From an uncultured Actinomycetota bacterium (GTDB lineage: Bacteria; Actinomycetota; Actinomycetes; JACCUZ01), in NCBI GenBank assembly GCA_963789855.1, contig CAWBMM010000002.1, positions 324,353 through 388,352 on the forward strand: DNA of 64,000 bases, given 5' to 3'. The position numbers and the translations under genes were made by a program. Shown piece after piece: positions 38,547 to 64,000 of the stretch. The first letter of the stretch is position 1, and each line of letters begins with the position of its first letter. Under the pieces are notes generated by a model. That model was not told the origin of the DNA and made no database searches. It was given only the letters and a program-made list of their open reading frames with translations.

Positions 38547-38551
38547 CTCGA

Positions 38552-43610: not shown

Positions 43611-44063
43611 CTGGCGCACAACAAGCGTGTCAGGTCGGCTCGCGCCTACGTACTCCGGTGGGAGCCCAGAGCGACCCGAGAATCGCCGCGTTAGACCGGG
43701 CGGCTCTGCCAGGAACATGACGGGCTCGCGCGCCCATCAAGCGGGCCTGGCCAGCCGCTACGACAAACACGCCCTCGTCTGCCGAGGAGGCGTTGTCCTC
43801 GCCGCCATCCTCCTGGCTCACCTGCTTGGTGAGACGGGGCCCAACTAGGCGCCGCCGGCCGTGCTTGTGACCGCAGTAGTGACCCACAGTCCAGTCCGCA
43901 GACGGGCCGCGATGCTATGGACCTGGCTCGTCTCCTGTTTCGAGACGGTCTGAACGATTGTCGGCGCGGCCACAGGATCAAGGTGGGGGACATAGAGTGA
44001 GCGGCAAGCGGCCCCGGGCCGCTTGCCGGGCCAGCGGCGACGCGGCCAGTTCGAGGTCGGAAG

Positions 44064-45742: not shown

Positions 45743-46225
45743 TCACCTGGTGATCCAGCCGGTGGCTATGTCGGAGAGCTCCCCGGTTCCCAGGTTGGCG
45801 ACGCCGTCCCAGGTGAGTTGCCCTTGGGCTCCCTGGAAGCGTCCGGTCCCACCGGTGACCGGGCCGGTGACGTGGTAGGTGATGACGAGCGGATCGCTGG
45901 TGCCTGCGGCTGTGCCGGCGTAGGTCCCGACGATGCTGTCGCCGTTGGCTGCGGTGATGGTGAAGGAACCATCGCTGACCTGCAGGGTGGCCAGGTTGAT
46001 GACCTCTGAGCCCTGCAGCGAGTAGTGCCCGAGATGGGTCGCGATGCCCGTGCCCTGGTCCTGGGTGAGGACCAGTGGAGGACTCAGCGGGGAGGTGACG
46101 AAGGTTCCGTGGTCGCGCGCCGTGATGTGCGTGACCTTTGCATCAGCAGCGTGGGCGGGCAGCATGGCCGCTGCGCTGAAGGCGATGGTCGCGGACACTA
46201 GGGCGAGGGTCGGGACGCGGCGCAT
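45743..46225 (-). CDS. Secreted protein of unknown function
   Basis: From the ATG at 46225: signal peptide MRRVPTLALVSATIAFSAAAMLPAHA-AD followed by a beta-rich ~135-aa domain (…GGTGRFQGAQGQLTWDG…). Confidence 0.55.
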   Translation of the reverse strand: MRRVPTLALVSATIAFSAAAMLPAHAADAKVTHITARDHGTFVTSPLSPPLVLTQDQGTGIATHLGHYSLQGSEVINLATLQVSDGSFTITAANGDSIVGTYAGTAAGTSDPLVITYHVTGPVTGGTGRFQGAQGQLTWDGVANLGTGELSDIATGWITR

Positions 46226-46299
46226 GGTGGCTCCTTTGACTGGTCTGGGGCTGTGACCCATTGACGCGCGGGCCGGTCGAGCGTTGGTAGAGCGACGTC

Positions 46300-49286: not shown

Positions 49287-49409
49287 ACGCCGGCCCCCGA
49301 TTCCGGGACGGAACCAACCCCGTGCCCCCAACTTCCCACGGACTGCGCTCTACCGCGACTCAACCGCGCCCTGCCACGGTGGTAGCACACCCCAGGACGG
49401 AGGGACGAC

Positions 49410-50196
49410 ATGGCGACCATCCAGCACCCCGCGTGCGGTGACCTCAGCTACAGCACGAGCGGCGAAGGATCCACCGCCTTGCTGCTGCTGCACGGATGGG
49501 CGGGTCTGCGGCCTACTTCGAGAAGCTGGTCGGCCATCTGGACCCCGAACTCCTCTATTGCGTGTGCCTGGACCTTCCGGGGCATGGATCCTCCGGCGAG
49601 CCGGTCGGCGACTACACCCTGGACGGCATCGCCGATGTCACTGTCGCGGTGGCTGACGCCGCCGGCGCCGACACTTTCATCCTGCTCGGCTACAGCATGA
49701 GCGCGAAGTTCGCGCAGTACATCGCCAACCGCCACTACGACCGGGTAGTGGGACAGATTCTGGTGTCCGGCGCCCCGGCAGGGCCGCTCCCCTTGCCGGC
49801 GGAGCTGGTCGACGACTGGTGTGACCGCGCCGGAGCCGCCGACCGGTTGATCGACGTCGTGCTGAGCTGCGCGACCAGGCCGCTCGACGCGCTGGTGCTC
49901 AAGGACGTCGGACACGGGGCCGCACGCGTCCTGCCCGACGTGCTGAGGGGGACCGTCGAGCTTTGCGTCGAGAGTGACTTCCTCGACGCGGTCAGGAACT
50001 CGAGCCTGCCGACCCTCGTTGTCGGTGGAACTGAAGACTGGATGTTTCCACCCGAGGTGTTGCGCGAAGCTTGGCGGCTCCTCTTGAACGCGCCCGGCTC
50101 GAGTTCATCAACTGCGGGCACGAGATACCCCTCGAAGCCCCCTCCGAGCTGGCCGACCTAATCTCGCAATTCGTCACACAGCTAGGAGGGACCTAG
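49410..50196 (+). pseudogene. Alpha/beta hydrolase, two frameshifts
   Basis: Three segments lie in three frames. First: MATIQHPACGDLSYSTSGEGSTALLLLHGWAG. Second: SAAYFEKLVGHL…LLGYSMSAKFAQ…LVVGGTEDWMFPPEVLREA. Third: ARLEFINCGHEIPLEAPSELADLISQFVTQLGGT. Switches fall near 49505 and 50070-50095. Confidence 0.65.
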
Positions 50197-50214
50197 CCTC
50201 CGGATCTCACGTGG

Positions 50215-50463
50215 CTAGGTCCTGCGCGGCTCAGCGCGACCGGTTGCATCGGACAGGGGCGCAGGGACTCCGCCGGCTGCCATCGACGGGTCGCGGCACA
50301 GCACGGGGATGGTGGCGCGGACGTGCCCGCAGGCGCGGCAGGTGATGACGAGCCCGTCGTTGAGGCGGCGCGCGCGCAACGCCCACGGCGTGTGGCATTG
50401 AGTGCAGAACCGGCTGACGATCCGCCGGCGTCGGGCGGTCTCGAGGTCGCTGACGTTCCCCAT
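50215..50463 (-). CDS. Small zinc-ribbon-like protein (hypothetical)
   Basis: MGNVSDLETARRRRIVSRFCTQCHTPWALRARRLNDGLVITCRACGH… has two CxxC pairs. No family recognised. Confidence 0.3.
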   Translation of the reverse strand: MGNVSDLETARRRRIVSRFCTQCHTPWALRARRLNDGLVITCRACGHVRATIPVLCRDPSMAAGGVPAPLSDATGRAEPRRT

Positions 50464-50670
50464 GAGGGGTCCCCGTTCGCGTTGTCGCCCAGTTGCGACG
50501 ACGCCGAGGATGCGCCTCAATCATGGCCAAGCGCAAGCGAATCGCCGCACCCAGTGAAGGGGGTCTCCGCCCGAACCACCACGTCTGCGTGAGCCGAGCC
50601 GCGACCTCGAACGGGCAGCATCAGCTTTGAGGACACCTCGGCTTGCACCTCAAGGCTTGGACTACGGTTG

Positions 50671-53394
50671 CTACCTGTCGATGGATCGGGCGGTGCTGGA
50701 GGGAGCGGCTGGCTGTGCCCATCCGGATCTGCCGGTCGGTGATTCCCATCGTCCTGGGCGCGGGGCCATGTGGCGCCCGGGTGCCTCGGCGTCGCGAAGC
50801 CGACGCGGCCTGATCGCGATGGCCTGCTCGCGGGCTTGGTCGAGCAGGGTGTGGGCGGCTTGTTGGCGGCGGTCGTGCGGTCTGTAGGGGCGGATGGCGT
50901 CGCCAGGGTGGCACGACCCCGGGTGCTGGTGCTTGTGCTGGTCGATGTCGGCGGGTTCGATGGTGAGATGCACGTGGTTGTCGTGCTGGCTGCGGGTCAT
51001 CCCGACGTAGAGGTGTTCGCGGTCGAGGCCGGGTCGGGCGAGCAGGATGCCGATGTTGGCGGTGGCGCCTTGGGCGCCGTCGATGGTGGTCGCCCAGCCG
51101 TAGCTGGCGTTCTCGGCGAGATACGTCGCGGGTAGCGAGGTCCGGCCGCGGCCGGCGAGATCTGGACGTCGAGGCCGCCGCCGGGGGCGGGGCCGAGGAC
51201 AGTGAACCGGTCACCGTTGCGGACGTGGGTGGCGCCGAGGTTCAGCCGGCGGTCGTTGCGCCGGGCTCGGAGCAGGTCGCCGGAGTGCCAGGTCACGGCC
51301 GCCCGCGACGGCGAGGACCGGGCCGTGCACGGTGCCGTCGGCTTGAGGCGGCGGTGCGGGCCCGCTGGTTGAGGGCGTCGACGTCGGTGCGGGCGCGGGC
51401 CATCATCAACGCGTCCATGCCGTGGGTGGTGGCGGTCTGCCACTGGCGGTGGACGGCGTCCAGGGCGGCGTCGGGGTCGGGGGCCGGGTGGATCCGGTCG
51501 TCGGCGTAGCGGGCCCACACCGCGGGGTTGCCGGACCGGAGGGCCCGGGTGGCGGCGGCTTCCCAGGGGTGGCTGAACCGGCGGATCCCGGTCAGCTCGA
51601 CCGCCCCGACCCGCGCGGCCAGGGCCGGCAGGAGGCCGCCGGCGCGTTCGACCGGCCCGATCTGGGCCGGGTCACCGACCAGGACCAGCTTGGCCCGGCC
51701 GGCCCGGGTAGCCACGGTGAGGGCGGCCAGGTCTTCGGTGGCGAGCATCGCGGCCTCGTCCACGATCAGCACGGTGCGGGGTCCGACCCGCCACCGGCTT
51801 GCCCGTTCGGACGGCTGGCTCGGGAGGCGGGGTTGTTCGTGGGCCCATTTGGCGACGGTGTCCGCCGGGGCGCCGGTGGCGGCGGAGAGTTCGGCGGCGG
51901 CCCGGGCGGAGGGGGCCAGGCCGTGGACCTGGTAGCCGGCGTCGGTCCAGGCGGCGGCGGCCGCCCCGAGGGTGGTGGTCTTCCCGGCGCCGGCCGGGGC
52001 GATCAGCACCGCCAGCATCTCCCCGCCCGACGACGCAGCCGTTGCAGGACGCCGGTCTGTTCGGGGTCGAGCTGGGCCGCCGCCGCGTGGGCGGCGGCCA
52101 GGGCGCCGGGCACCACCGCGCGGCCGGCGGCCACACCAGCCTGGGCGGTGGACAGGATCCGGGCCTCGAGGGCGAGCAGGTCGGCGGCGGCCCACCGGGT
52201 GTCGCTGTCTCGGGGGGTGACCCCGTCCTGGACCCGCCCGACCGGGACGGCCTGCGCGGTGGACAGCGCCTCGGTGGTGACCTGCTCGACCAGTGGCCCG
52301 GACCTGCGCGGCGGTGCCCGGCTGGGTGGGCAGCGCGGCCGCGGCCTGGACCACCAGATCGGCGCGGGAAGATGTCGCGCTCCGGGTGCCGGCCACGGCC
52401 ACCGCGCGGGCGGTGACTCGCCGGCTCACCGCCGCATCGAGGTCGCCGGCTGGCGGCCTGCCGGGTGCCGGTGGCGCGGCTGCGTCGGACGCGCGGATCA
52501 GCTGGTTCGCCGCTCCAGCCCACCGGAGGCCTCAGCGGCCACCGGGCCTGCAGCACGCCCGCGCCGAGTGGGCGGCTCGCGGGGCGAGACTTGAGCACGA
52601 GGTCTCGATCACCGTGGCGCGTTCGGCCGAGGTGAGGTCCCGACCGAGCGCGTCGGCGAACTAAGCTCCAGGGTGGGCGCGGCGTCGGCGTCGATCTGCC
52701 GGGTTCGTTTGGACCAGTGCCGATCAGCGCGGAGGGGACGACCGGGGAACGCGACCTGGCCGAGCGCGTGACCGGACCGAACCCGACCCCGAGGCGTGGC
52801 AGCTCGCCGCGTAGCGCGGCCTGGTAGAGCGCGCCGGCGGCTCTTGTGCTGGTAGATCTCGCGCCCGTCGATGCTCCGCCACCCCCTGGCGCAGCGCAGC
52901 TTTGACCACCAGAGCGTGGAGTGCAGCTGGGGGTCCCCGTGGGAGCGGCGGTGGTCGAGACCGCGCTGCGTACCCGGAGAGCGATTAGGGGTCACCGTCG
53001 ACCGCTTTGCGCGAATGGCGGCTGTCGTCGAGATAGGACAGCGCGGCTGCACCGCGGCGCGGTGCGCTCGGCGATCTGGTGAACAGATTGTGGGTCGCCG
53101 ATGCCCACGGCGCGGACACCGATTTGGGCGCGGAGAACGTAGGTGATACCGGTGACCCCGTCGAGAGGCCGGCCAGCGGCGCCGCTCGAGGGTACAGGCG
53201 GCGAGCCAGCAGCGCTCAGCTGCGCTCGGTGACCATGGCGCCCGGGCCAGGTCAGCTCGCCCAGGCCCGCGTACAGCGACGGCGCCTCACGCGGGCCAGG
53301 AAGTACTCCGACGGGTCGGCGGCCACTCGCGCTGGTAGTACCGCCACGGCTGGTTCCGATCTTCGCCGAGGCGAGATGCCGCGGAACCTAGCAT
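50671..53394 (-). pseudogene. MOBF-type (TrwC/TraA-like) conjugative relaxase-helicase, heavily frameshifted
   Basis: Relaxase motifs seen in various minus frames: LASAKIG…YYQRE-VAADPSEYFLAR (N-terminus, ATG ~53394); TFSAPKSVS (~53111-53140); GDPQLH (~52905-52945); IDGREIYQH…ALYQAALRGELPRLGV. Helicase motifs: LIAPAGAGKTTTL (Walker A), LIVDEAAML, VLVGDPAQIGPV, GMTRSQHDNHV. Confidence 0.8.
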
Positions 53395-53409
53395 TCCGGG
53401 AATGCACAT

Positions 53410-53965
53410 GTCTGCGCTATCTGGGGCCAAGATCGAAAGGCCCGGGCAATACCCGTCGTGGTTGGACGATAACGCGGTGAGTGACGGATAGTGAAGGTGT
53501 CTGACGGTCAATTACGGTATGCCGAGAGGGCAATACGGGGGAAGATTGGCTGGGGAGAAAGGATCTTGAGCGGGAACGGCGTGTCGGGACGCGGCGCGAG
53601 GGCCTTTCGGCCTGCCGCAGCAACTGCCTTCGCGTGCCCGTGGCTGGGCCACGCGGAAGGTACGGGGTCCCTGGATCGCTCGTCCGAGCATCGACTGAGA
53701 CCCCGTAGGCGGCGATCGACAAGCCACGGGTAGCGGTTGGCCACTGAGACAAGAGCAGCCCAAAATAGCCGCGAAGGAGCGGCGAACAGCTGGCAGCAAG
53801 TGACCCGCGAAGGACTTCAGGCCCGCGAGCGGATATGCCCCGAGAATCGGCCGTGCTCAGAGCCGCCGCGGGTACATGGTGAACCTCCAATTGGGAGCAC
53901 CTGCGCGTAGAATTCGAGAAATCTGTCGGGTTTCTGGGTCAGAAGGCCAGGCGCGCCGACGCCGG
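53410..53965 (+). ncRNA. Probable 5' fragment (domains I-III) of a group II intron, lacking IEP ORF and domains V/VI
   Basis: About 550 nt that is visibly less GC-rich than its surroundings, with no credible ORF on either strand. Many local and long-range helices (for example tacggggtc 53661-53669 pairs with gaccccgta 53699-53707; aggcc-tttc-ggcct). Motifs recalled from bacterial group II intron domains I-III occur in the right order: cgggaac, actgag, gccccgagaatc, gggtac, cagaagg. Confidence 0.45.
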
Positions 53966-54010
53966 CGCCGCGATCGCCACTGCGGAGCGCGTCGAGCCAG
54001 TGCCGCTTCG

Positions 54011-55237
54011 CTAGCCCAAACGCCCGCGCGACATCGGCACGACGTTCTTCGCGGCGAGCACCTCGGCTGCCGTGGCGTCCATCGCCGCTGCGACCCGCCG
54101 CGAATGCTCCGCCGTCGCGTGCTGGTAGCGCTGCGCAGCCGCCGGGGTCGAGTGACCGGCCATCTGCATGAGGGTGGCCAGGGTCGCCCCGTGCTCAGCG
54201 GCCGCGGTCATCGCCGAGTGCCGCAAGTCGTGCCCGCGACAGTCGGTGCGGCCGATCTTGTCCAGCCCGCGACGCAGGATCTGGGAGTAGGTGTCGAGTA
54301 CCTCGCGGCCGCCGGCCGTGAGGAACACCAGATCGTCTGGGCCGGCACCCGGTCGATGCTCGTCCAGGTGCCGGCGAAGCTCGGCGGCGAGAAAGGCCGG
54401 CAGCGCGACGGTGCGTCCACCGGCCTCTGACTTGGGGGCGTCCAGCGTCAGGCGTCCCGCCACGCGGTACAGCCGGCGGGTGACGCGGACCTCCGGTTGC
54501 CGGCCGTCCAGCCCTAGGTCGAGGATCCGCAGTGCTGCCAGCTCGCCGGCGCGAAGCCCGGAGAACCCCGCCATCAGCACCACGGCGCGGTACCTGGCAG
54601 GCACCACGTCTGCGAGCTCCGCCAGCTCGGTCACGCTCAATGTCGGGCGCTCAGAGGACCGGGGCTCGCCGGCCCCTGTTATGCGGCACGGGTTGCGCAG
54701 CAACAGCTCGTCGTCGACGGCGGTCTGCAGGATCGCCCGCAGCAGCCGGTAGGACGCGCGCCACGGTCGCCGAGCGGTCCCGGCTCCCGGCCCGGCTGCG
54801 TCTCGCCCCCCGACGGTCGGATCAGCCTGGTCCGCAGGTCCGCCGACAGCAGCGGCGTGCCAGGCGCGGACCCGGTCCGGCTCGATCTGGTCGAGCAGCA
54901 GCGGACCGAGGTAGGGCTCGAGGTGCCGGCGGAAGTCGATCGCGTACTGGTGTCGGGTCGAGTCTTTGAGCCCGGGCCGAAGTTCGACCCAGCGGGCCCC
55001 GTAGTCCGCGAGGGTCTCCGACACCCGCCGGGGTGCCCGATAGGTCCGCCGCAGGATGTCCGCCTCGACGGTGGCGAGGAACGCGCGGGCATCGGCAGTA
55101 GTGGCGAACGTCTGGTCCGCAGTCGCGCGTCGGCCGCTGGGGTCCCGCCACCTGGCCCGGAACCGACCCGATGGGAGCCGCTCCACGGTGCCGAAGCCAC
55201 CCCGGCGACGGCGCCGGGCCGGTTGCGGAGTGGTCAT
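54011..55237 (-). CDS. int: Tyrosine recombinase (phage-type integrase)
   Basis: Intact 408-aa ORF. N-terminal SAM-like/arm-binding region (GTVERLPSGRFRARWRDPSG…) and a catalytic domain with …GLRAGELAAL…, HDLRHSAMT and …AGHSTPAAAQRYQH (R…HxxR…Y pattern). It lies 148 nt from attR. Confidence 0.9.
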   Translation of the reverse strand: MTTPQPARRRRRGGFGTVERLPSGRFRARWRDPSGRRATADQTFATTADARAFLATVEADILRRTYRAPRRVSETLADYGARWVELRPGLKDSTRHQYAIDFRRHLEPYLGPLLLDQIEPDRVRAWHAAAVGGPADQADPTVGGRDAAGPGAGTARRPWRASYRLLRAILQTAVDDELLLRNPCRITGAGEPRSSERPTLSVTELAELADVVPARYRAVVLMAGFSGLRAGELAALRILDLGLDGRQPEVRVTRRLYRVAGRLTLDAPKSEAGGRTVALPAFLAAELRRHLDEHRPGAGPDDLVFLTAGGREVLDTYSQILRRGLDKIGRTDCRGHDLRHSAMTAAAEHGATLATLMQMAGHSTPAAAQRYQHATAEHSRRVAAAMDATAAEVLAAKNVVPMSRGRLG

Positions 55238-55294
55238 GGGTACTGCCTCCTGGTGACCGGCGACCGCCGTTGAGAGCCGCCAGAGGCCCTACGT

Positions 55295-55315
55295 TAGCCC
55301 ACGTTTGGCCCACGA
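55295..55315. repeat. Second copy of the 21-mer tagcccacgtttggcccacga (candidate arm-type site next to attR)
   Basis: Exact direct repeat of 38652-38672. It lies between the int start (55237) and attR (55385). Confidence 0.6.
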
Positions 55316-55380
55316 CGCTGGTCCGAAGATCCCAAAATTGCGCTATCGTCGCAGGTCAGAGCGTTATCCACAGGACATCG

Positions 55381-56592
55381 TCAACAGCTTCCCAAGCTGA
55401 CAGTGCGAGTTCGATTCTCGTCACCCGCTCCATGCGTCCTCCCATGCGGGCGGCGCACTCCGGCATAGATGTCGAGGTGTCGTCGCGCGCTCTGCTCCCA
55501 GGTGAAGCGCGCTGCGACGGCGCGGCCCGCGCGGACGAGCGACCTCCGAAGGTCGTCGTCCTCCAGGGTGGCCAGCAGGCCGGTCGCCAGGCCGCCGACG
55601 TCACCCGGCACCACCATGATCGCGTCGCGTCCGGGCACGAGGTACTCCCGGAACACGGGCAGGTCACTGGTGACCACCGGGATGCCGGCGCTCATCGCCT
55701 CGAGCACGGCCAGCCCGAAGCCCTCCTTCACCGACGGGAAGGCCAGCACGTCGGCGGCGGCGTACCAGGCGGGGATGTCGGCGTCGGGGACGGTGCCGAC
55801 GAGGACGACGTCGTCGTCCATCGTCAGACCCAGCTCTGGAAGCAGGCCGAGCACCCGCTCGCGGTAAGGCCGGTGGTCCTGGAACGAGTGGCCGCCGACG
55901 ACCGCGAGCACCGGTGCCACCTCCCGGTTGGCTTTGATCTCGGCCAATGCGCGCACGAGTGTGTCGCTGCCCTTGCGGGGCTCGATGCCGCCGACGGCAA
56001 GGACGAGCGGCCGACGGTTCGCGCCCACGTCGTCGCGTAGCTGCGCGGCTCGGTCACGGTCCGCCGCGGCGAAGCGACCGATGTCGACACCGTTGGGCAC
56101 CACGCCGGCGTGGACGCCGTAGTCCTGCTCGAGGATCTGCTGCCACGCCTGGCTGACCGTCAGCACGACGTCGGGCTCGAGGATCGCCGCGCGCTGGCAG
56201 TCCATCAGGACCTGGCTGGAGAAGTCGTCGACGTGGTGCACGGTCCGCACGACGGTCACCGATGCGCCTCCGTCACGAACCCGCGCCGCGGCGCGGGCCG
56301 CGATGCAGTCCTGCGCATGCAGCAGCGGGGCGTCGGTCTCGGCCAGCGCTGCGGCGAGCCGGTCGATGCTGGCGGCGACCTTGTCCTCGAGCGCGAGACC
56401 ACCGGACGGCCCCGGCACGACCGTCACCGGCGCGGCGACCGGGCGGAAGAATCCCGTCGCCGGCTCGCCGAGGGCCAGCACCCGCACCGACACGCCAGCC
56501 GCGTGCAGCGCCTCGGCGAGAGCCAGCGTGTGCACGACCCCCCCGCGCGGCTTGGTGGAGTACGTGAGCAGCAGCACCTCGGACTCGCTCAC
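55381..56592 (-). CDS. GT4-family glycosyltransferase (MSMEG_0565-family-like)
   Basis: GTG start at 56592 (VSESEVLLLTYSTKPRGGVVHTLALAEAL…) overlaps the fdrA stop (GTGA). The C-terminal GT-B motif …FPSVKEGFGLAVLEAMSAGIPVV… is present. The ORF runs through attR and stops at 55381. Confidence 0.8.
   Translation of the reverse strand: MSESEVLLLTYSTKPRGGVVHTLALAEALHAAGVSVRVLALGEPATGFFRPVAAPVTVVPGPSGGLALEDKVAASIDRLAAALAETDAPLLHAQDCIAARAAARVRDGGASVTVVRTVHHVDDFSSQVLMDCQRAAILEPDVVLTVSQAWQQILEQDYGVHAGVVPNGVDIGRFAAADRDRAAQLRDDVGANRRPLVLAVGGIEPRKGSDTLVRALAEIKANREVAPVLAVVGGHSFQDHRPYRERVLGLLPELGLTMDDDVVLVGTVPDADIPAWYAAADVLAFPSVKEGFGLAVLEAMSAGIPVVTSDLPVFREYLVPGRDAIMVVPGDVGGLATGLLATLEDDDLRRSLVRAGRAVAARFTWEQSARRHLDIYAGVRRPHGRTHGAGDENRTRTVSLGSC
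55385..55431 (+). repeat. attR core (displaced 3' part of tRNA-Gly)
   Basis: 47/47 identity to 38500-38546. No tRNA 5' half lies upstream of it. Confidence 0.9.
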
Positions 56593-58154
56593 AGCCCTCC
56601 TTCCGCCAGCGCCGGTTTGCGCAGAGCCAGCGCGCAGGCGGCGTACGCCGCACGGGCGTTGGTCTCCGGAACGATGCAGCCCACCGCCTCCAGCGCAGCC
56701 CGCTGCACGGAGTAGACCTGCGGGTCGCCCTCGGTGCCGAGGACGTAGGCAACGACCTGGGGGCCGGAGCCGGCCATCAGCTCCTGACACACCGGCGCCA
56801 GCAGGCTGGCCGGGTCGGGATGACTGCCGTGGCCCAGCACGACGTCGAGCAGCACGACGGCGACATCGGGGTCGTCGCCCAGCTCGCGCAGCATCGCGAG
56901 CCGGCCGCTCGGCTCGATCATCGGATGAGGCACGCCGCGCGTGTACTCCTCCGCACCGAGGTCGAGCAGCACGTGCGCGCGGTCGGGTGCGGGCAGACCG
57001 TGCCGCGCGCGTAACGGCTCGTTGGAGTAGACGTCACCGAGCAGCTCCTCGACGATCAGCTGCGCCTCGAAGCACAGGGTGCCGCCGGAGAACAGGCCGC
57101 GCACCGTGCGCCGACCGGGAGCCACGCGGGTACTCGCCGCCTCGACCCTGTCGACGAGTCCTCCTGCGGGCGCCGGCGCGGACCCGCCGACGAGCCGCAA
57201 CGCCTCGCGCGCGCCGCGCTCCAGCGTGCTCACCTGCTGCACGACCGCGTCGTCGCCGGTGCCGGGCAGGCCGAGAAACACCGCGACGCCGGGTGTCTGC
57301 CTGCACTGCTGCAGCACGTGGCCGGCCGCCCCCGGGCTGGGCGGCTTGGAGACCACGAGCACCGCGCCGGTACCCGGATCGTCATCCAGCGTCCGCACTG
57401 CGAGGCCCGCCATCAGCCCACCGACCTGCTCGGACAGGTCGCGACCACCGACACCGATCACCGAGGTGACCTCGGCGCCCCAGCGGTCGAGCAGGGCCGA
57501 AACCTCCTGCGCACCCGTCCCGGCCGCCGCCACGACACCGACCCGTGGCGCCGCGTCGCCCGACGATGAGCCGAGGACGTTGGCGAACCCCAGCCCGATG
57601 CCGGCCAGCACGGCCGTGCCCGCCCCGGGCCCCATCACCAGGAGCCCCAGTCCAGCCGCGCGCTCCTTGAGCTCGATCTCCTCCTCGAGGGTCACACCGT
57701 CGCTGAACAGCAGCACGTGCAGGCCGGACGTCAAGGCATGATGGGCCTCGAGCGCGGCGTACTCGCCGGGCACGGAGACGACGGCGACGTTGAGGTCGCG
57801 GTGGAGGCGCACGGCCTCCGCGATGCTCGCCGGGTTGCCTTCTGCGGTGCCGGTCGGCTGCCGCTCGCGCTCCGCGAAGGCCGCGCGCCACCCGGCGTCC
57901 AGCGCTGCCTGCACGGCCTCGTCATCGCGGGCGCGGACGGCGAGCACCACGTCGTTCGCGGTCGTCGAGCTCAGCTCGCCTCCGACGAAGCCGCCGCCCG
58001 CCAGCTCCTCGAGACCGCGGGGGGTCGCCATCGCCGCGCCGGCCCACTCCACGCCGGCGGACTGCTCCATCGTGACCGTCGCCGACATCAGCAGCAGTGA
58101 GTCGAGGTAGGCGCCGGGGTGGACGCGCAGCCCGGAGGCGGTCATGTCGCGCAC
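56589..58154 (-). CDS. fdrA: FdrA-family protein (succinyl-CoA-synthetase-alpha-like acyl-CoA ligase fold)
   Basis: Intact 521-aa ORF: …GAYLDSLLLMS…VVSVPGEYAALEAHHALTSGLHVLLFSDGV…LVMGPGAGTAVL…. An alternative ATG at 58145 overlaps the carbamate kinase stop (ATGA). Confidence 0.8.
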   Translation of the reverse strand: MRDMTASGLRVHPGAYLDSLLLMSATVTMEQSAGVEWAGAAMATPRGLEELAGGGFVGGELSSTTANDVVLAVRARDDEAVQAALDAGWRAAFAERERQPTGTAEGNPASIAEAVRLHRDLNVAVVSVPGEYAALEAHHALTSGLHVLLFSDGVTLEEEIELKERAAGLGLLVMGPGAGTAVLAGIGLGFANVLGSSSGDAAPRVGVVAAAGTGAQEVSALLDRWGAEVTSVIGVGGRDLSEQVGGLMAGLAVRTLDDDPGTGAVLVVSKPPSPGAAGHVLQQCRQTPGVAVFLGLPGTGDDAVVQQVSTLERGAREALRLVGGSAPAPAGGLVDRVEAASTRVAPGRRTVRGLFSGGTLCFEAQLIVEELLGDVYSNEPLRARHGLPAPDRAHVLLDLGAEEYTRGVPHPMIEPSGRLAMLRELGDDPDVAVVLLDVVLGHGSHPDPASLLAPVCQELMAGSGPQVVAYVLGTEGDPQVYSVQRAALEAVGCIVPETNARAAYAACALALRKPALAEGGL

Positions 58155-59164
58155 CCGACAGGCGCCGCGGCCCGCTCGATGCGTGTGCCGGCAGCGGGGT
58201 CGCCGGCGACGACATCGGCGAGTCGCTCGGCGCAGGTGATGACCGCCCGCTGGCCCCCCTCGCGCACGAACTGCACAGCGGCAGCGACCTTGGGACCCAT
58301 GCTCCCTGCCGGGAACTGCCCTTGCTCCGCAAGCCGTTCGGCCTCGTCAGCGGAGAGCATGTGCACCGGTCGCTGCTGCGGCGTCCCGTGGTCGAGCATC
58401 ACCGCATCGACGCCGGTCAGCAGGATCAGCTCGCGGGCGCCCAGCGACGAGGCCAGCACAGCGGCCGAGCGGTCCTTGTCGATGACCGCGTCGACGCCGG
58501 CGACCTCGCCGTCGCCGGTGATGCGTACGGCGACGCCGCCTCCCCCCGCGGCCAGCACGACGTGCCCGGCGTCGAGCAGCGTGCGGATCGCCGAGATCTC
58601 GACGATGCCGATCGGCGACGGCGAGGCGACCACCCGCCGGTAGCCGCGCCCGGCGTCCTCGACGACGCACCAGCCGCGTTGGCGGGCGAGCGCGGCGGCG
58701 CGCTCGGCGGTGAAGAACGGCCCGACCGGCTTGGTGGGGAGGCGGAACGCCGGGTCCTTGAGGTCCACCCGCACGTGCGTCACGAGCGCGACGGCGGTGC
58801 CGGTGCCGCACACGCGGTCGACCTCGCGGGCGAGCACGCCACCAAGCTGACCCTGCGTCATCGCGACCAGCTGGTGCAGCGGCTGGGCCGGCACCAGGTG
58901 GGTGCCCTCCTCCTGCTGGATCGCCAGGTTCCCCACCTGAGGGCCGTTGCCGTGCACGACCGCGACGCCCCACCCGGCAGCGACCAGCAGGGCCAGGCTG
59001 CCCGCCATCTGCCGCGCGTTCGCCGCGATCTCGCTCGCGGTGCCCGCCTCGCCGGCGGCCGTCATGGCGTTGCCACCGACCGCGACCACCGCGAGTGGTC
59101 TGATGGGCTCCGCGGGCTCCGACGGCGGCGCCGCGCGTCGGATAGCAGATGCCATGTGCACCAT
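58142..59164 (-). CDS. arcC: Carbamate kinase
   Basis: Intact 340-aa ORF: …AVVAVGGNAM…VVHGNGPQVGNL…GGGGVAV…AVIDKDRSAAVLA…FPAGSMGPKV…. Confidence 0.85.
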   Translation of the reverse strand: MVHMASAIRRAAPPSEPAEPIRPLAVVAVGGNAMTAAGEAGTASEIAANARQMAGSLALLVAAGWGVAVVHGNGPQVGNLAIQQEEGTHLVPAQPLHQLVAMTQGQLGGVLAREVDRVCGTGTAVALVTHVRVDLKDPAFRLPTKPVGPFFTAERAAALARQRGWCVVEDAGRGYRRVVASPSPIGIVEISAIRTLLDAGHVVLAAGGGGVAVRITGDGEVAGVDAVIDKDRSAAVLASSLGARELILLTGVDAVMLDHGTPQQRPVHMLSADEAERLAEQGQFPAGSMGPKVAAAVQFVREGGQRAVITCAERLADVVAGDPAAGTRIERAAAPVGCAT

Positions 59165-59190
59165 AGTGAACTAGCGTTGCGAGGAGCGCA

Positions 59191-59847
59191 ATGTCTCGAA
59201 CGGAGGGTGCGGACCGCCCCGTCGATGCGCCTCTCGTCGCGTCCTGGCAGGCCGCCGAGGCCGACCTGTTCACCCTGGTGCTCAGCTCGCCGGCGCTCTA
59301 CGAGGACGTCGTCACGGCGCTCGGCGCGACGGTAGACGATCTGCGCGCACTCGGGTCGTCCACTGCCGACCTGCTGGGGGCATCCGGCACCGCCGAGGCG
59401 CTGGCCCGTGACCGGCTGGCGGCTACCGCGACCGCGCGGTTCCTGAAGCCGGACCTGGTCGCTCGGGCCGCGCTGGCGGTGCGGCACCGCGAGATGGTCG
59501 CCGAGCAGGCCTCCGCTCGCCGGCACGCGCTGCTGACCGCAGCGCGCAACGAGGGCAGGACGTGGGCCGTGCTCGAGGAGCGGGGCGCACCGGCGGGCGA
59601 CGTCTACGCGCCGTACCGGCGGCTCGAGGCGCACTCCGGCACCGGCGACGCCGTCCTCGTCACTGCAGGCCCCGACGAGGAGTTCCGCACCTGCGAGCAC
59701 CGTGTCGAGGTCCTGCGCGTCGAGCTGGCGACCGGCCGGCTGGACGAGCCGCCCGCACCGGTGCCCACGCCGTTCGCCTGCCGGTCCGAGGCAGAGCGCG
59801 AGGCCTGGGTCGAGGCGTGGCGTGCGGCGCTGAGCAGTCCCGACTGA
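59191..59847 (+). CDS. Hypothetical protein (218 aa), first gene of the radical-SAM transcription unit
   Basis: Intact GC3-rich ORF. No family recognised. It diverges from arcC with only 26 nt between the start codons. Confidence 0.5.
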   Translation: MSRTEGADRPVDAPLVASWQAAEADLFTLVLSSPALYEDVVTALGATVDDLRALGSSTADLLGASGTAEALARDRLAATATARFLKPDLVARAALAVRHREMVAEQASARRHALLTAARNEGRTWAVLEERGAPAGDVYAPYRRLEAHSGTGDAVLVTAGPDEEFRTCEHRVEVLRVELATGRLDEPPAPVPTPFACRSEAEREAWVEAWRAALSSPD

Positions 59848-59916
59848 ACCTCTTGCCTCCCACCAGGTTGTGTCGGATAGTGAACGTCAGTCGGTCACTC
59901 CTAGCGAGGGCAGCAC

Positions 59917-61104
59917 ATGACGGAGCAGAGCGCCGCAGGTCACGATCGTCCGGCCGCCGCCCACGTGGTGGCAGAGCTGATCACCGCGCTGCAGAGCACC
60001 GGGCTGCGGGTCGAGGTCCCGATCGGCGCGCGGGCCGGCGGGGCCGGCCCGGCCGATGCCGGGATGCTCTACATCGAGGGCGTGCAGACCACGGTGCCGA
60101 CCAGCGCGGGGTACGTCGCGAGCTCGCCCTACGTCCTGCGTGGCGAGGACGACGGCGGCTGGGGCGTCTACCGCGACGACGACCGGTTGGCCACCGCCGC
60201 GCTCGCCCCACGCCCCGCCTACTACGACCTGACCACCGACGAGGGCATCCCCTACTGGCAGATCGCCCTGCTGCACCTCGACTCCGTCGCCAGCACCGTC
60301 CTGCAGACGTGCGCCTACTGGGGCAACGCCGACCAGTGCACGTTCTGCGGGATCGGTGTCACGCTGGCCAACGGGCGCACGATCGCGAAGAAGACGCCGC
60401 AGATGCTCGCCGAGGTCGCCGTCGCGGCACGCGACCTCGACGGTGCGGTGGACGCGACGCTGACCACCGGCAGCACCGCGACCCCGGACCGGGGAGCGCT
60501 GTACGTCGGCCGCTGCGGTGAGGCGGTCAAGGCCGCCGCCGGTCTTCCGGTGCAGGTGCAGTTCGAGCCCCCGTCGGACCTCGACGTGATCGACCAGGTG
60601 GCCGACATGGGCGTCGACTCGGTCGGCATCCACGTCGAGACCTTCGACCCCGACGTGCTCGCGCGGGTCGCCCCTGGCAAGGCCCGCTGGGGCATCGAGG
60701 CCTACTTCACCGCATGGGAGCGCGCAGTGCGCGCGTTCGGAGCCGGGCAGGTGTCGACCTACGTCATCCTCGGCATGGGCGAGGACGAGAAGCTCATCGT
60801 CGAGGGCTGCAAACGGGCGATCGACCTCGGCGTCTACCCGTTCGTGGTCCCGCTCCGGCCGACGCCGGGCAGCCTGATGCAGGACCTGCTGCCGCCGCCG
60901 AAGGAGGCCGTCGAGGCGGTCTACCGGCAGATCGTCCCGTACCTCGCGCGCAAGGGCATGTCGGCGTCCGGTGTCGCGGCCGGCTGCGCCCGCTGCCAGG
61001 CGTGCTCGGGGCTTGGTGCGTTCGAGAGATCTGGTGCTGTCGACAAGGCGGACGGAGGCATCCTCGATGGACGTCGTACGCTCCCGCTGGCCGTCAACGC
61101 CTGA
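59917..61104 (+). CDS. Radical-SAM-like protein with non-canonical CX8CX2C motif (MSMEG_0568-family-like)
   Basis: Intact 395-aa ORF. Cys132/141/144 (CAYWGNADQCTFC, nt 60310-60348), a TIM-barrel-like body (…VGIHVETFDPDVL…YVILGMGE…), and a C-terminal CARCQAC motif. Confidence 0.75.
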   Translation: MTEQSAAGHDRPAAAHVVAELITALQSTGLRVEVPIGARAGGAGPADAGMLYIEGVQTTVPTSAGYVASSPYVLRGEDDGGWGVYRDDDRLATAALAPRPAYYDLTTDEGIPYWQIALLHLDSVASTVLQTCAYWGNADQCTFCGIGVTLANGRTIAKKTPQMLAEVAVAARDLDGAVDATLTTGSTATPDRGALYVGRCGEAVKAAAGLPVQVQFEPPSDLDVIDQVADMGVDSVGIHVETFDPDVLARVAPGKARWGIEAYFTAWERAVRAFGAGQVSTYVILGMGEDEKLIVEGCKRAIDLGVYPFVVPLRPTPGSLMQDLLPPPKEAVEAVYRQIVPYLARKGMSASGVAAGCARCQACSGLGAFERSGAVDKADGGILDGRRTLPLAVNA

Positions 61105-61552
61105 CACCGCCGGCCTCGGCGCCCGCCCGGTCGACGGTCCGGTCGAGCTGGCCACACACCTGCGCATCCGGCACGCCGTCTTCGTCGACGAGCAGCGCAT
61201 GTTCAGGGGCTCCGACACCGACGCGCACGATGACGACGCAGCGACCGTGCACGTGCTTGGCGTCGACGACGGCGTTGCCGCAGGCACGGTGCGCCTCTAC
61301 CCGCTCGGCGACGGCGTCTGGAAGGGCGACCGGCTGGCCGTGCTGCCCGAGCACCGGCACAGCGGCGGGCTCGGCGCCGTCCTGGTGCGGTACGCCGTCG
61401 CGACCGCGGGCGCGCTGGGTGGCGAGCGCATGGTGGCGCAGATCCAGCTCGGCAATGTGCGGTTCTTCCGGGCGCTCGGCTGGAGCGCGGTCGGCGAGCC
61501 GGCCGACTACCTCGGCCTGCCGCACCAGCAGATGTCGATCCCGCTGCAGTGA
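61067..61552 (+). CDS. GNAT N-acetyltransferase (MSMEG_0567 N-terminal-domain-like)
   Basis: From the ATG at 61067 (MDVVRSRW…), overlapping the radical-SAM gene's 3' end by 38 nt. …IRHAVFVDEQRMF…GTVRLYP…GDRLAVLPEHRHSGGLGAVLVRYAV… is a GNAT core. Confidence 0.75.
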   Translation: MDVVRSRWPSTPDTAGLGARPVDGPVELATHLRIRHAVFVDEQRMFRGSDTDAHDDDAATVHVLGVDDGVAAGTVRLYPLGDGVWKGDRLAVLPEHRHSGGLGAVLVRYAVATAGALGGERMVAQIQLGNVRFFRALGWSAVGEPADYLGLPHQQMSIPLQ

Positions 61553-61596
61553 CGCGGACTGCGGTGACCAGGACTGCGATGACCCGCACCGTGGCC

Positions 61597-62568
61597 TCAC
61601 GGTCGGAGGTTGGTGACACCTTCCCGGTCCAGGGCGAAGACGTCGACCACCTCGGCACCGCGGCGCAGCCGCACCCGGCCGGTGTCGTCCAGCACGCCGA
61701 CCGACGTCGCGGTGAGGCCGCGCTCGGCGAACGCCGCCTGGCATGCGCCCACCCGCGCCGGCGGGCAGCACAGCAGGAAGGCGAAGCACGGGAAGCAGCC
61801 GAGCCAGTCGGCGAGGGCGACGCCGTCGGGCACCGGCACCAGGTCGAGGTCGACGGTCACACCGAGCCGGCCCGGCTCGAGCAGCATGGCCAAGGATCCC
61901 ACCAGCCCGGCCATGCTCACGTCCTTGGCGGCGACCGCGACCTCGTCGGCGGCAAGCTCGGCGAGCAGCCGCACGTCGCCCGCCAGCCGGGAGCCACGCT
62001 CGTCGAACGACGGGAAGAACGGGAAGTCGGCGCGCATCGCCCCCTCGATGCAGCAGCCGACCACCAGCTCCTGGCCGGGCGCGGCGTTCTGCGCCGACAG
62101 CACCCGGTCGGCGCGACCGACCCCGAAGGCCGACAGCGCCGGCGGGCCGTCGGTGCGGGTGAGGTGACCACCGACGATCGGCACGTCGTACAGGTCGCCT
62201 GCCCACCGCAGCCCGCGCAGCACCTCGCGGGACACCGCCTCGCTGCCGACGATCGTGTCGAGCACGGCGACCGGACGAGCGCCCATCGCGGCCAGGTCGT
62301 TGACGTTGGTCAGCACCGCGGCCACGCCCGCGCCGTACGGATCGGCGGCAACGAAGGCCGGCAGGATCGCCTCGCCGCCGACGACGACCTGGCCCGCGCC
62401 GTCGGGCAGGACCGCACCGTCGTCGCCCGGGCCGGCGTACCAGTCGCCCGGCCCCAGCACGTCGGCGACCAGCCCGATGTCGGCCTTCGCCAGCACTCCG
62501 GGCAACTGGCGCAGGTGCTGGGCGAGACCGTCCAGCTCCGTCACCGCAGCCTCCGGTCTCCTGTCCAT
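61597..62568 (-). CDS. AIR-synthase-related (PurM/ThiL/SelD-fold) protein (sll0787-family-like)
   Basis: Intact 323-aa ORF: …GPGDDGAVL…AAVLTNVNDLAAMGARPVAVLDTI…VGGHLT…AAKDVSMAGLVGSLAMLLE…. Confidence 0.8.
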   Translation of the reverse strand: MDRRPEAAVTELDGLAQHLRQLPGVLAKADIGLVADVLGPGDWYAGPGDDGAVLPDGAGQVVVGGEAILPAFVAADPYGAGVAAVLTNVNDLAAMGARPVAVLDTIVGSEAVSREVLRGLRWAGDLYDVPIVGGHLTRTDGPPALSAFGVGRADRVLSAQNAAPGQELVVGCCIEGAMRADFPFFPSFDERGSRLAGDVRLLAELAADEVAVAAKDVSMAGLVGSLAMLLEPGRLGVTVDLDLVPVPDGVALADWLGCFPCFAFLLCCPPARVGACQAAFAERGLTATSVGVLDDTGRVRLRRGAEVVDVFALDREGVTNLRP

Positions 62569-62588
62569 GTCGGCCTACGATTTCTATC

Positions 62589-63371
62589 ATGGTGAACGTG
62601 CCGCCGAGGTTCCTGGCCGTGCCCGAGCGTGCCGGGAAGCCGCGCCGGCGGGGCATCACGCACGTGCTCGACAAGGGCCTGCCGGTCGGCGAGGCCGAGG
62701 CGCTGCTCGAGGTCTGCGGGGCCTACCTCGACGTGTGGAAGCTCGGTTGGGGCACGGCCTATCTCGATCCGGGCGTCCCCGCCAAGATCGCGCTGCTCGA
62801 GGCGCACGGGGTGCTCGCGTGCACCGGAGGCACGCTGCTCGAGGTGGCCTGGCAGCAGGGGGTCGTGGACGACTTTCTCGAATGGGCCGGGCAGACGGGC
62901 TTCCCGTGCGTCGAGGTGTCCTGCGGCGCGGTCAGCATGACCACCGCTGAGAAGCACGAGCTGGTCGCGGCCGCCGCGGGCCGGTTCCTCGTGCTCGGTG
63001 AGATCGGCGCCAAGGACCCGCGGGTCGAGGTGTCGCCGAAGGCCTGGGCGCTGGCGGCTGCGGCCGACCTCGAGGCAGGCGCAACCTGGGTGGTCACCGA
63101 GGGCCGGGAGAGCGGCACCGTCGGGCTCTACACCCCCGACGGTCAGGTCCGCAGCGACGTCGTGGAGGCGGTGGTCGACATGGTCGGCGTCGACGCCGTC
63201 GTCTTCGAGGCGCCGCGCAAGGACCAGCAGGCGTGGCTCATCCGCCGGTTCGGCGCGGACGTCAACCTCGGAAACGTCGTGCCGGCCGAGGTCCTCGGGC
63301 TCGAGGCCCTGCGGCTCGGGCTGCGCGCCGACACCATCGCCACCGCCGACCGCAGCGCCGTCGCGCGGTAG
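62589..63371 (+). CDS. Phosphosulfolactate synthase (ComA)-family protein
   Basis: Intact 260-aa ORF: …KPRRRGITHVLDKGL…YLDVWKLGWGTAYL…FPCVEVSCGAV…VVTEGRESGTVGLY…VVFEAPRKDQQAWLIRRFG… matches my recollection of PF02679. Confidence 0.75.
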   Translation: MVNVPPRFLAVPERAGKPRRRGITHVLDKGLPVGEAEALLEVCGAYLDVWKLGWGTAYLDPGVPAKIALLEAHGVLACTGGTLLEVAWQQGVVDDFLEWAGQTGFPCVEVSCGAVSMTTAEKHELVAAAAGRFLVLGEIGAKDPRVEVSPKAWALAAAADLEAGATWVVTEGRESGTVGLYTPDGQVRSDVVEAVVDMVGVDAVVFEAPRKDQQAWLIRRFGADVNLGNVVPAEVLGLEALRLGLRADTIATADRSAVAR

Positions 63372-63381
63372 AGGCGGCGCG

Positions 63382-64000
63382 ATGAGCACCATCCCGGGCC
63401 GCTACCGCGAGGTCTCCGTCGCCACCGTCGACGTACCCCTGGCGGCCGAGACGCTGCGCGCGCTGCTCACCTCGCGGCCCGTCTACCGACGCACGAGGTA
63501 CGTCGTCGTGCGCCTCGGCGACGACACTGCGCTGGTCGAGGTGCACCCGACCCCGACGGGGGCGCTCTTCCATGGGGTCGCCGACATCACCCTGCTGGCG
63601 ACACCCGAGGAGACGGCCTACCTGCGCCGCCCGGACGTCGACACCGGCGTCCCCAGCGAGCTGGTCCGGGCGGCCCAGGACGCGCCGGGTGCGCGCTGCG
63701 TCGTCGTCGAGGGCAGGCACGGTCACGTCAACTTCGTGCTCGACCCCGACCCCGTCCGGCTGCACGTCGTCGACGTCGCTCCGCCGCGGCCGGCGAAGCT
63801 CGTCGACCAGGTCCATCGGGTGCTGCAGACCGCGGACGACCTGCCCGCGATACTCCCGGTGCCGCACGTCATCGAGCTGTCCGACCTGCTGCCGGCAGAG
63901 CCGATCGAGCACGTCCTGCTGCAGTGCCGCGGCGGCGGCATGGAGGTCGCGGGTGCGACGGTTTCCTACCTCGACGAGGTCCCCCCGCACGCGGACTGGA
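63382..64000 (+). CDS. Hypothetical protein, 5' partial view (runs off the window)
   Basis: ATG at 63382, then 206 codons without a stop to the window end. Strongly GC3-rich. It is absent from the ORF track because no stop is reached. MSTIPGRYREVSVATVDVPLAAETLRALL… No family recognised. Confidence 0.45.
   Translation, partial: MSTIPGRYREVSVATVDVPLAAETLRALLTSRPVYRRTRYVVVRLGDDTALVEVHPTPTGALFHGVADITLLATPEETAYLRRPDVDTGVPSELVRAAQDAPGARCVVVEGRHGHVNFVLDPDPVRLHVVDVAPPRPAKLVDQVHRVLQTADDLPAILPVPHVIELSDLLPAEPIEHVLLQCRGGGMEVAGATVSYLDEVPPHADW

Follow-up and report, generated by a model that had tools for sequence, protein, structure and literature searches.

A 64,000-nt stretch of DNA from an uncultured Actinomycetota bacterium (73% G+C; hereafter the window) was found to run into a cluster of about 15 genes, in which a predicted coenzyme M (CoM) operon is joined to the core of the Nit1C-type gene clusters and to homologues of the Escherichia coli carbamoyl-phosphate enzymes AllF, AllG and AllK. 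The cluster is a single conserved gene set and not a chance juxtaposition. From its gene content we tentatively propose that it may act as one functional unit, in which CoM would serve as the dedicated carrier of a nitrogen-scavenging C-N pathway, a reading to which we give somewhat less than an even chance. Nine genes, the left two-thirds of the cluster, lie in the window, and about 7 kb more of it follows past the window end.

Genes in the window were selected by third-position G+C and homology. Nine tightly packed genes, supported by third-position G+C as open reading frames (ORFs), fill positions 55381-64000 in three transcription units, as the initial annotation had described them. The minus-strand unit starts with a carbamate kinase-like gene (CK; 58142-59164, 340 aa), continues with an FdrA/AllF-like gene whose product has a succinyl-CoA-synthetase-alpha-like fold (56589-58145, 518 aa) and ends with a GT4 glycosyltransferase of the MSMEG_0565 family (55381-56592, 403 aa). 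The 4-nt stop/start overlaps reported for this unit were confirmed, ATGA at the CK/AllF-like junction and GTGA at the AllF-like/GT4 junction, the GT4 start being GTG. On the plus strand, a hypothetical protein of 218 aa that belongs to no known family (hyp218; 59191-59847) precedes an MSMEG_0568-family radical SAM protein (rSAM; 59917-61104, 395 aa) and an MSMEG_0567/Sll0786-family GNAT (61067-61552, 161 aa); a start-codon scan placed the GNAT start at the ATG at 61067, with GGAGG upstream, and gave a 38-nt overlap with the 3' end of the rSAM gene. The sll0787-like AIR-synthase-related gene of the PurM superfamily (AIRS-like; minus strand, 61597-62568, 323 aa) is convergent with the GNAT gene, from which it is separate, as first noted, and divergent from the gene of the phosphosulfolactate synthase ComA/XcbB (plus strand, 62589-63371, 260 aa). 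The latter is the first gene of the CoM operon, and is followed by an XcbA-family/DUF7714 gene (plus strand, 63382-64000) which is cut by the window end after the first 206 of its 295 codons. Both divergent gaps are very short, with 20 nt between the AIRS-like and ComA genes (62569-62588) and 26 nt between CK and hyp218 (59165-59190). Because the CK/hyp218 gap is only 26 nt and hyp218 has a Shine-Dalgarno sequence (GAGGAG), its promoter must sit inside the CK coding region. A TACGAT hexamer found 7 nt upstream of the ComA ATG (-13 to -8) would fit a leaderless transcript.

The remainder of the cluster was read from L001, a 374-kb metagenome contig that encodes the exact window rSAM protein, is 99.4% identical to the window over 55060-64000 and reaches 11 kb past the window end, about 7 kb of this being cluster. 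In L001 the XcbA/DUF7714 gene is followed by XcbD, XcbE, XcbC and AllG/DUF1116; after AllG, the genes for OsmC, an MSMEG_0572/Sll0783-family protein and a pyridine-nucleotide disulfide oxidoreductase lie on the opposite strand. About half of what supports the CoM operon was seen in L001 and related loci, and the rest in the window. One L001 gene call of 970 aa (16648-19560) would join XcbC to AllG as a 'Rosetta-stone' fusion; it was rejected as evidence and treated as a probable assembly artefact, since XcbC and AllG are adjacent ORFs in different frames in all other loci (separate and overlapping, the closest relatives and isolate genomes included) and since L001 has a second frame break in AIRS, where its gene call (11682-12653) is truncated and the window gene is intact. 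L001 probably carries indel errors. Within the called fusion, AllG has an N-terminal extension (residues 506-553) that is similar, at 33% over 48 aa (E 7e-4), to the C-terminal tail of E. coli AllF.

The rSAM protein was searched against one genome per species, 185,579 species in all, and 73 related loci were recovered at 59-88% rSAM identity. Nearly all are labelled Actinomycetota, with one metagenome-assembled genome (MAG; L068) labelled Alphaproteobacteria, and they include Geodermatophilus, Blastococcus, Modestobacter, Microbispora, Sphaerisporangium, Nocardioides, Asanoa and Pseudonocardia as well as Microbacteriaceae, Nanopelagicales, Euzebyaceae and Acidimicrobiia, with Geodermatophilaceae and Streptosporangiaceae among the families. 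Locus gene maps were drawn by tblastn and blastp with our own reference set within 10 kb on either side, and absence from a map means not within that range. A core set of 12 genes (GT4, AllF, CK, rSAM, GNAT, AIRS, ComA, XcbA, XcbD, XcbE, XcbC and AllG) was complete in 26 of the 40 loci of at least 20 kb, and all five xcb genes were present in 36 loci. Inversions and transpositions were seen in L036, L037, L041, L045, L054, L059, L062, L064 and L072 with gene content kept, which argues for selection on the set and not on its order. A PuuR-like XRE-cupin regulator accompanies the cluster in 26 loci and a CoADR-like gene in 27-35. The association of fdrA, arcC and comA with the rSAM quartet, for which a gene-neighbourhood check had been suggested, is therefore conserved across Actinomycetota. 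A reduced version was observed in the Nanopelagicales-like freshwater MAGs L046, L047, L051, L052, L055 and L061, which represent streamlined actinobacteria and several of which bear an implausible taxonomic label, some as Bifidobacterium breve. It consists of OsmC, the regulator, CoADR-like, MSMEG_0572, a nitrile hydratase, GT4, AllF, CK, hyp218, rSAM and GNAT, with no AIRS, AllG or xcb gene after it; in one Nanopelagicales genome GNAT is where the cluster ends, and in L047 the downstream genes are unrelated.

By orthology, ComA-XcbA-XcbD-XcbE-XcbC is shown to be a predicted operon for the bacterial CoM pathway. The corresponding five enzymes XcbB, XcbA, XcbD, XcbE and XcbC have been demonstrated biochemically to make CoM in Xanthobacter autotrophicus Py2, by a route in which phosphoenolpyruvate (PEP) and sulfite give phosphosulfolactate and then sulfoacrylate, followed by addition of cysteine, cleavage dependent on pyridoxal phosphate (PLP) and reduction by a [2Fe-2S] enzyme, XcbA, which yields 2-mercaptoethanesulfonate in the last step (PMC9457059). 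All five proteins match those of Py2 (pXAUT01) one to one, as single full-length matches at 37-44% identity (41% for ComA against XcbB, 37% for XcbC, and 44% for both XcbD and XcbE). The gene order is identical to that of the CoM operon of Nocardioides JS614 (pNOCA01), to which identities are 50% (ComA), 39% (XcbA), 52% (XcbD), 43% (XcbE) and 50% (XcbC); the JS614 and Py2 proteins themselves are 36-45% identical. ComA scored 265 bits against PF02679 and 246.9 against the archaeal equivalog TIGR03849, under its cut-off of 280. PF24830 gave 184 bits on the window fragment of XcbA, and the full-length L001 copy reached 284.5 with NF052538 (cut-off 150), so that the last gene of the window, at first called hypothetical, belongs to the XcbA family. 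Its product has in common with Py2 XcbA five Cys and two His, putative cluster ligands that are kept in 41 of 43 sequences. For the other L001 proteins the best NCBIfam matches were XcbD (a Lyase_1 protein of the aspartase/fumarase superfamily; 569.1 against an 'exception' cut-off of 600), XcbE (a PLP enzyme; 237.2 against 450) and XcbC (argininosuccinate-lyase-like, of the same superfamily as XcbD; 423.9 against 575). The ComA-like protein, once taken for an isolated sulfonate-tailoring enzyme, is thus placed as the first gene of a known five-gene CoM set (PMC9457059).

The surroundings of this operon differ from those of its plasmid counterparts. In Py2 and JS614 the xcb genes are linked to alkene monooxygenase, epoxyalkane:CoM transferase (EaCoMT), SDRs and 2-KPCC, whereas here the operon is chromosomal, unlinked to any of these, preceded by the divergent AIRS-like gene and followed after XcbC by AllG (or AllH), a gene found in neither the Py2 nor the JS614 operon; the five enzymes, all single full-length orthologue-like matches, are what it shares with the operons of Py2, JS614 and Mycolicibacterium, together with the JS614 order. 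A tblastn search of 72,556 plasmids for DUF7714 returned six records only, from Xanthobacter autotrophicus Py2, Nocardioides JS614, Mycolicibacterium chubuense NBB4 and Methylocystis iwaonis. In the window and the 74 loci, tblastn detected no EaCoMT homologue, and for 2-KPCC only distant DSOR matches (22-29% identity) with no close relatives. It could nevertheless be supposed that an ordinary CoM operon for the detoxification of epoxides or alkenes has come to lie, by chance or as an island, beside an unrelated Nit1C-like cluster and a carbamoyl-phosphate operon, given that bacterial CoM genes accompany alkene or epoxide metabolism in all published cases and that a 2024 paper knew CoM biosynthesis genes only from methanogens and alkene-utilising bacteria (PMC11507031), that the cluster abuts an integrated element and that some loci have no xcb genes within 10 kb. 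Such an accidental juxtaposition, to which we assign a very low probability, has the conservation data and the missing EaCoMT strongly against it: 26 long loci, spread over many families, carry this combination even though genes have been rearranged, AllG or AllH adjoins XcbC in nearly all loci, and the G+C of the cluster (0.73-0.74) fits the genome and not the neighbouring island.

One further candidate for a CoM-related function in the window is a 761-aa HdrD/GlpC-like protein (35549-37834, plus strand) with two CCG cysteine-rich domains and 4Fe-4S dicluster domains, encoded just upstream of a tRNA-Gly gene. CCG domains reduce CoM-S-S-CoB in methanogens. As a CoM-heterodisulfide reductase of the cluster it was rejected; tblastn found it in none of the 74 related loci, and the gene is therefore probably a coincidental neighbour.

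The second module consists of CK, the AllF-like protein and the AllG-like protein, which are shown by orthology to be homologues, as judged from sequence, of E. coli AllK, AllF and AllG. FdrA is now recognised as AllF, a subunit of the E. coli oxamic transcarbamylase (OXTCase) AllFGH, and its operon partner AllK is the catabolic carbamate kinase; the system catalyses, in either direction, the formation of carbamoyl phosphate from a carbamoylated acceptor and phosphate and the reaction of carbamoyl phosphate with ADP to ATP, CO2 and NH3 (PMC11326118). The AllF-like protein reached 363.2 bits with NF004760, under the cut-off of 433, shows 37% identity with E. coli AllF across 502 aa and matches the FdrA structure PDB 3DMY (E 1e-63); the His aligned to H389 of E. 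coli AllF is invariant in 54 of 54 sequences. CK is 43% identical to E. coli AllK/YbcF and scored 276.8 with NF009007 (cut-off 266) and 322.5 with the arcC model TIGR00746 (cut-off 358.3). The AllG-like protein, encoded past the window in L001 and present in 38 loci, gave 205.7 bits with PF06545 and is 37% identical to full-length E. coli AllG. FdrA and carbamate kinase, which had been read as acyl-CoA-type tailoring enzymes, are instead AllF and AllK homologues, with an AllG gene adjoining XcbC (PMC11326118).

Compared with the E. coli system, the three homologues match over their full lengths, and AllF and CK are translationally coupled here, whereas AllG lies in a separate operon after XcbC, no allantoin genes (allB, allC, allD or allE) are nearby and AllH is missing from the window's lineage. 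Searches by jackhmmer and hmmsearch with E. coli AllH (DUF2877) found no homologue in the window or L001. Oxamate is an unlikely carbamoyl acceptor for the window's AllF/AllG. Hyp218 was tried as a hidden AllH and ruled out (hhalign probability 0.2%). In L041 (Pseudonocardia aurantiaca) and L062 (a member of Kribbellaceae) an AllH-like gene follows the xcb operon in place of AllG; in these two loci and in L072 (an unclassified Actinomycetota MAG), where AllH was undetected, AllF, CK and AIRS were not found within 10 kb. This variant suggests that OXTCase-like subunits have been reshuffled between lineages.

The catabolic nature of AllFGH/AllK in E. coli (PMC11326118) raises the alternative that the whole cluster serves purely for nitrogen scavenging, with a ureido, carbamoyl or nitrile compound degraded to NH3 and ATP through AllF/AllG and CK. 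The substrate might then be a sulfonate such as a taurine or cysteate derivative, and the Xcb-like lyases and PLP enzyme would degrade an organosulfonate rather than make CoM. XcbE-like does resemble the D-cysteate sulfo-lyase CuyA (185 bits) and D-cysteine desulfhydrase, a nitrile hydratase or amidohydrolase occurs in relatives, and Nit1C and gpr are reported to be induced by nitrogen starvation. All five Xcb homologues are present, however, with the Cys/His ligands of XcbA conserved and in the order of a bona fide biosynthetic operon (JS614, 39-52% identity); the sulfite addition to PEP carried out by ComA is not known as a degradative step, and no sulfonate transporter is consistently linked to the cluster. 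We consider this alternative improbable.

The third module, made up of hyp218-rSAM-GNAT, the AIRS-like protein, GT4 and the MSMEG_0572-family protein, is shown by orthology to correspond to the predicted conserved core of the Nit1C/gpr clusters, as represented by MSMEG_0565-0572 and Synechocystis sll0783-sll0787. The quartet of rSAM, GNAT, AIRS-like and GT4 had already been assigned to this type, and the assignment is upheld. When the family models proposed for checking were applied, rSAM (TIGR04043, 375.8 bits, cut-off 303.7), GNAT (TIGR04045, 110.8 bits, cut-off 68.45) and GT4 (TIGR04047, 380.6 bits, cut-off 259.85, with Pfam Glycos_transf_1 and Glyco_transf_4) scored above the NCBIfam cut-offs, whereas the AIRS-like protein remained below that of TIGR04049, its best match (253.5 bits, cut-off 321.3), as did FdrA with NF004760, CK with TIGR00746 and ComA with TIGR03849. 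The rSAM protein is 40% identical to that of the canonical Klebsiella plasmid Nit1C cluster and has no sequence relative in PDB at E<=0.01; its CX8CX2C motif (C132, C141, C144) is invariant in 67 of 67 sequences, and a C-terminal CX2CX2C (C357, C360, C363) is kept in 65 of the 67, the Klebsiella protein among them. GNAT adjoins the rSAM gene in 66 of 74 loci. The AIRS-like protein, with Pfam domains AIRS and AIRS_C, matched methanogenesis marker 2 at 169 and is 34% identical to the Klebsiella sll0787-family protein; its nearest solved structures are PurL (3e-9), HypE (6.7e-9) and PurM, all PurM-superfamily enzymes that activate or phosphorylate an amide oxygen with ATP. Its gene accompanies the xcb operon in relatives. 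The MSMEG_0572/Sll0783-family protein, encoded just past the window in L001, scored 218.4 with TIGR04044 (cut-off 109.85) and had a weak, borderline DsrE match.

Hyp218 has no NCBIfam match and no Pfam match above the gathering cut-off, yet jackhmmer detected its homologue immediately before the rSAM gene in 65 of 74 loci. A word-based search returned only eight relatives, whereas an exhaustive profile search of 1.84 billion proteins gave 422 representatives at E<=1e-3, none with a Pfam domain. Its AlphaFold2 model is confident (pLDDT 90.3, pTM 0.80) and shows five N-terminal helices in a bundle, then a sheet of four to five strands and a helix; for this model Foldseek found nothing in PDB better than E 0.26 and TM 0.27. 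On the basis of this model hyp218 is possibly a new fold, or a family specific to this rSAM subfamily.

Relative to the canonical Klebsiella plasmid cluster the shared proteins are 34-58% identical, and the rSAM with both Cys motifs, GNAT, AIRS-related, GT4 and MSMEG_0572/Sll0783 proteins are common to the two types. What sets the present cluster apart is the separation of GNAT and AIRS on opposite strands, the conserved hyp218 before the rSAM gene, the addition of the CoM operon, AllF/AllG/CK, the CoADR-like reductase, OsmC, the PuuR-like regulator and, in relatives, a nitrile hydratase or Amidohydro_2 protein, and the lack of the Nit6803 nitrilase, the MSMEG_0569 flavoprotein and MSMEG_0570. 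With Klebsiella queries, tblastn (E<=1e-6) found no Nit6803/sll0784-family nitrilase in the window, L001 or the 73 related loci, and no match to the MSMEG_0569-family flavoprotein or MSMEG_0570 in the window or related loci. The initial annotation had seen neither nitrilase nor flavoprotein, which holds for the window, L001 and all 73 loci; the check it proposed for a nitrilase beyond 64 kb found none in the 11 kb of L001 past the window end or in the 73 loci. The chemistry of Nit1C/gpr clusters has been open since 2005 (PMC1199592). Nit1C is reported to be needed for cyanide assimilation in pseudomonads and to be induced by nitrogen starvation, and the gpr cluster of Mycobacterium smegmatis is induced by GlnR, confers peroxide resistance and raises NADPH/NADP (PMC6039565).

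Thiol-redox genes and hydrolases complete the cluster. The flavoprotein is CoADR-like (TIGR03385, 243 bits) with a single invariant Cys in the motif YSPCGIPY. It was considered as an orthologue of the CoADR of the JS614 etn cluster, but identity is only 33%, so that the two belong to the same family and the link is not specific. The OsmC gene of the L001 part is conserved with the cluster. Adjoining OsmC/MSMEG_0572, a Co-type nitrile hydratase (NHase) was found near the cluster, with the alpha subunit in about 16 loci, 13 of which also have the beta subunit (TIGR03888 180 against 152; PF02979 297 bits; alpha motif VCTLCSC), the NHase loci being L010, L012, L017, L032, L040, L047, L050-L053, L055, L059 and L066. 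In about 15 other loci (L018-L021, L033, L037, L041, L043, L045, L048, L054, L060, L062, L070 and L072) an Amidohydro_2 gene (PF04909) adjoins OsmC/MSMEG_0572 instead. Relatives have one or the other and almost never both, which looks like alternative solutions to one step, covered by the nitrilase in classical Nit1C.

In mycothiol and bacillithiol synthesis, a thiol is built through glycosylation and acylation by MshA and MshD or by BshA. By this model the cluster might produce a new low-molecular-weight thiol or glycoconjugate, with the product of the Xcb enzymes, CoM or an intermediate sulfonate, being glycosylated by GT4, acylated by GNAT and perhaps carbamoylated via carbamoyl phosphate, while the CoADR-like protein would be the dedicated disulfide reductase and OsmC a peroxidase. 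The alternative, unlikely in our estimate, is the closest refinement of the tailoring idea put forward initially. After its own family, GT4 matches MshA (92.7 bits) and BshA (78 bits) best in NCBIfam, the cluster shares with mycothiol synthesis the presence of a GNAT, and both the single-Cys reductase and OsmC are conserved with the cluster; the peroxide resistance and raised NADPH/NADP conferred by gpr (PMC6039565) would also agree with it. The same GT4/GNAT/rSAM/AIRS core, however, occurs in classical Nit1C clusters without xcb genes, so that the substrate of the core need not be CoM; the alternative gives no role to rSAM, the PurM-like enzyme or the relatives' NHase and amidohydrolase, and the only setting known so far for carbamate kinase with AllF/AllG is catabolic (PMC11326118). 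Glycoconjugate tailoring is kept as a possible rival, with the thiol-redox genes and the relatives' NHase pointing elsewhere. The initial interpretation is, overall, partly supported, and the observation on which it was built is confirmed.

In the CoM-carrier reading that we propose, CoM would be made as the pathway's own thiol-sulfonate carrier and not for alkene metabolism, and the CoADR-like single-Cys flavoprotein, the DsrE-like MSMEG_0572 protein and OsmC would keep CoM reduced or use it. The pathway may handle a one-carbon C-N unit, namely a carbamoyl, amide or nitrile group, as suggested by the carbamoyl-phosphate enzymes, the amide-activating PurM-type enzyme and the recurring nitrile- or amide-hydrolysing enzyme. 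AllF, AllG and CK would exchange this unit with carbamoyl phosphate, the PurM-type AIRS-like enzyme would activate it at the amide oxygen, and in relatives the Co-type NHase or the amidohydrolase would hydrate or hydrolyse it, replacing the nitrilase and flavoprotein that classical Nit1C has. The most economical guess at a role, drawn by analogy from Nit1C of pseudomonads and cyanobacteria and from gpr of M. smegmatis, is nitrogen scavenging together with protection from redox stress under nitrogen limitation.

Several observations weigh against this proposal. No CoM-using enzyme was identified, EaCoMT and close relatives of 2-KPCC being absent from the window and the 74 loci, and an altered product of the CoM pathway is possible because XcbC, XcbD and XcbE are all under the strict 'exception' cut-offs of NCBIfam. 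Eight long loci, Nanopelagicales included, have no xcb genes within 10 kb, so that CoM may be dispensable there or its genes may lie elsewhere. AllH, which the E. coli OXTCase requires, occurs in only seven related loci (L030, L032, L036, L041, L045, L054 and L062), none in the window's lineage, and that lineage has neither NHase nor amidohydrolase inside the cluster. Finally, nothing found explains the roles of rSAM, GNAT, GT4 and hyp218.

A bolder form of the CoM-carrier proposal, which we think unlikely, would make CoM the carrier of a cyano or carbamoyl group, in a small-molecule version of the chemistry by which HypF and HypE build the cyanide ligand of [NiFe]-hydrogenase. CK would make or consume carbamoyl phosphate, AllF/AllG would move the carbamoyl group between phosphate and the CoM thiol to give S-carbamoyl-CoM, and the AIRS-like enzyme would dehydrate this with ATP to 2-thiocyanatoethanesulfonate; in reverse, the relatives' Co-type NHase would rehydrate the cyano-thioether formed from cyanide and CoM disulfide. 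The two systems are alike in a source of carbamoyl phosphate, an ATP-dependent PurM-superfamily enzyme and thiol chemistry, a mechanistic analogy only and not family membership; no HypF homologue is present here, and PurL is at least as close to the AIRS-like protein as HypE. If this form were true, it would imply CoM-dependent assimilation of cyanide into carbamoyl phosphate, or delivery of CN to the rSAM/GNAT/GT4 core, and would explain chemically, for the first time, why Nit1C goes with nitrogen starvation and cyanide. CoM would then have a third biological role.

Directly to the left of the cluster lies an integrated element of about 16.9 kb (38474-55431), which begins with a tRNA-Gly(CCC) gene (38474-38546) and encodes a TraI-like AAA_30 helicase (51293-52531) and a tyrosine integrase (54011-55237). 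Its boundary is marked by the right att site (55385-55431, plus strand), a perfect 47-nt copy of the 3' end of the tRNA gene (38500-38546; 47/47 in blastn). The last 16 or so codons of GT4 (…ENRTRTVSLGSC) are the reverse complement of this repeat, and before integration the tRNA-Gly gene would have stood directly against the 3' end of GT4. G+C is 0.67-0.70 across about 38-50 kb, against 0.73 in the flanks. The L001 strain lacks about 4.5 kb of the element (window 50532-55060; 50165-55060 compared with L001 4778-5144), and further left its DNA is entirely different and encodes a BBE/FAD oxidase and a BTAD-NACHT-TPR regulator, so that the left flank of the cluster varies between strains.

Each module is of a known kind. 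None of the papers searched describes a CoM operon in these organisms, or one together with a Nit1C-like core and AllF/AllG/CK, in line with the earlier statement that the combination was not a described pathway, although the xcb part had already been assigned to the CoM pathway. As a cofactor, CoM is ascribed to methanogens, to archaea that oxidise alkanes and to a few bacteria that oxidise alkenes, and the organisms with the present cluster are not counted among its producers. If many Actinomycetota of soil and fresh water have a complete chromosomal CoM operon away from epoxide genes, the known biology of CoM would become wider, and cultured carriers are at hand in Geodermatophilus ruber, Blastococcus jejuensis, Microbispora hainanensis, Nocardioides daejeonensis and Asanoa hainanensis. 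The variant described here points to one pathway that includes a thiol-sulfonate cofactor, a node at carbamoyl phosphate and a step in which a nitrile or amide is hydrolysed, and it would turn the unexplained Nit1C/gpr gene set into a short list of testable substrates.

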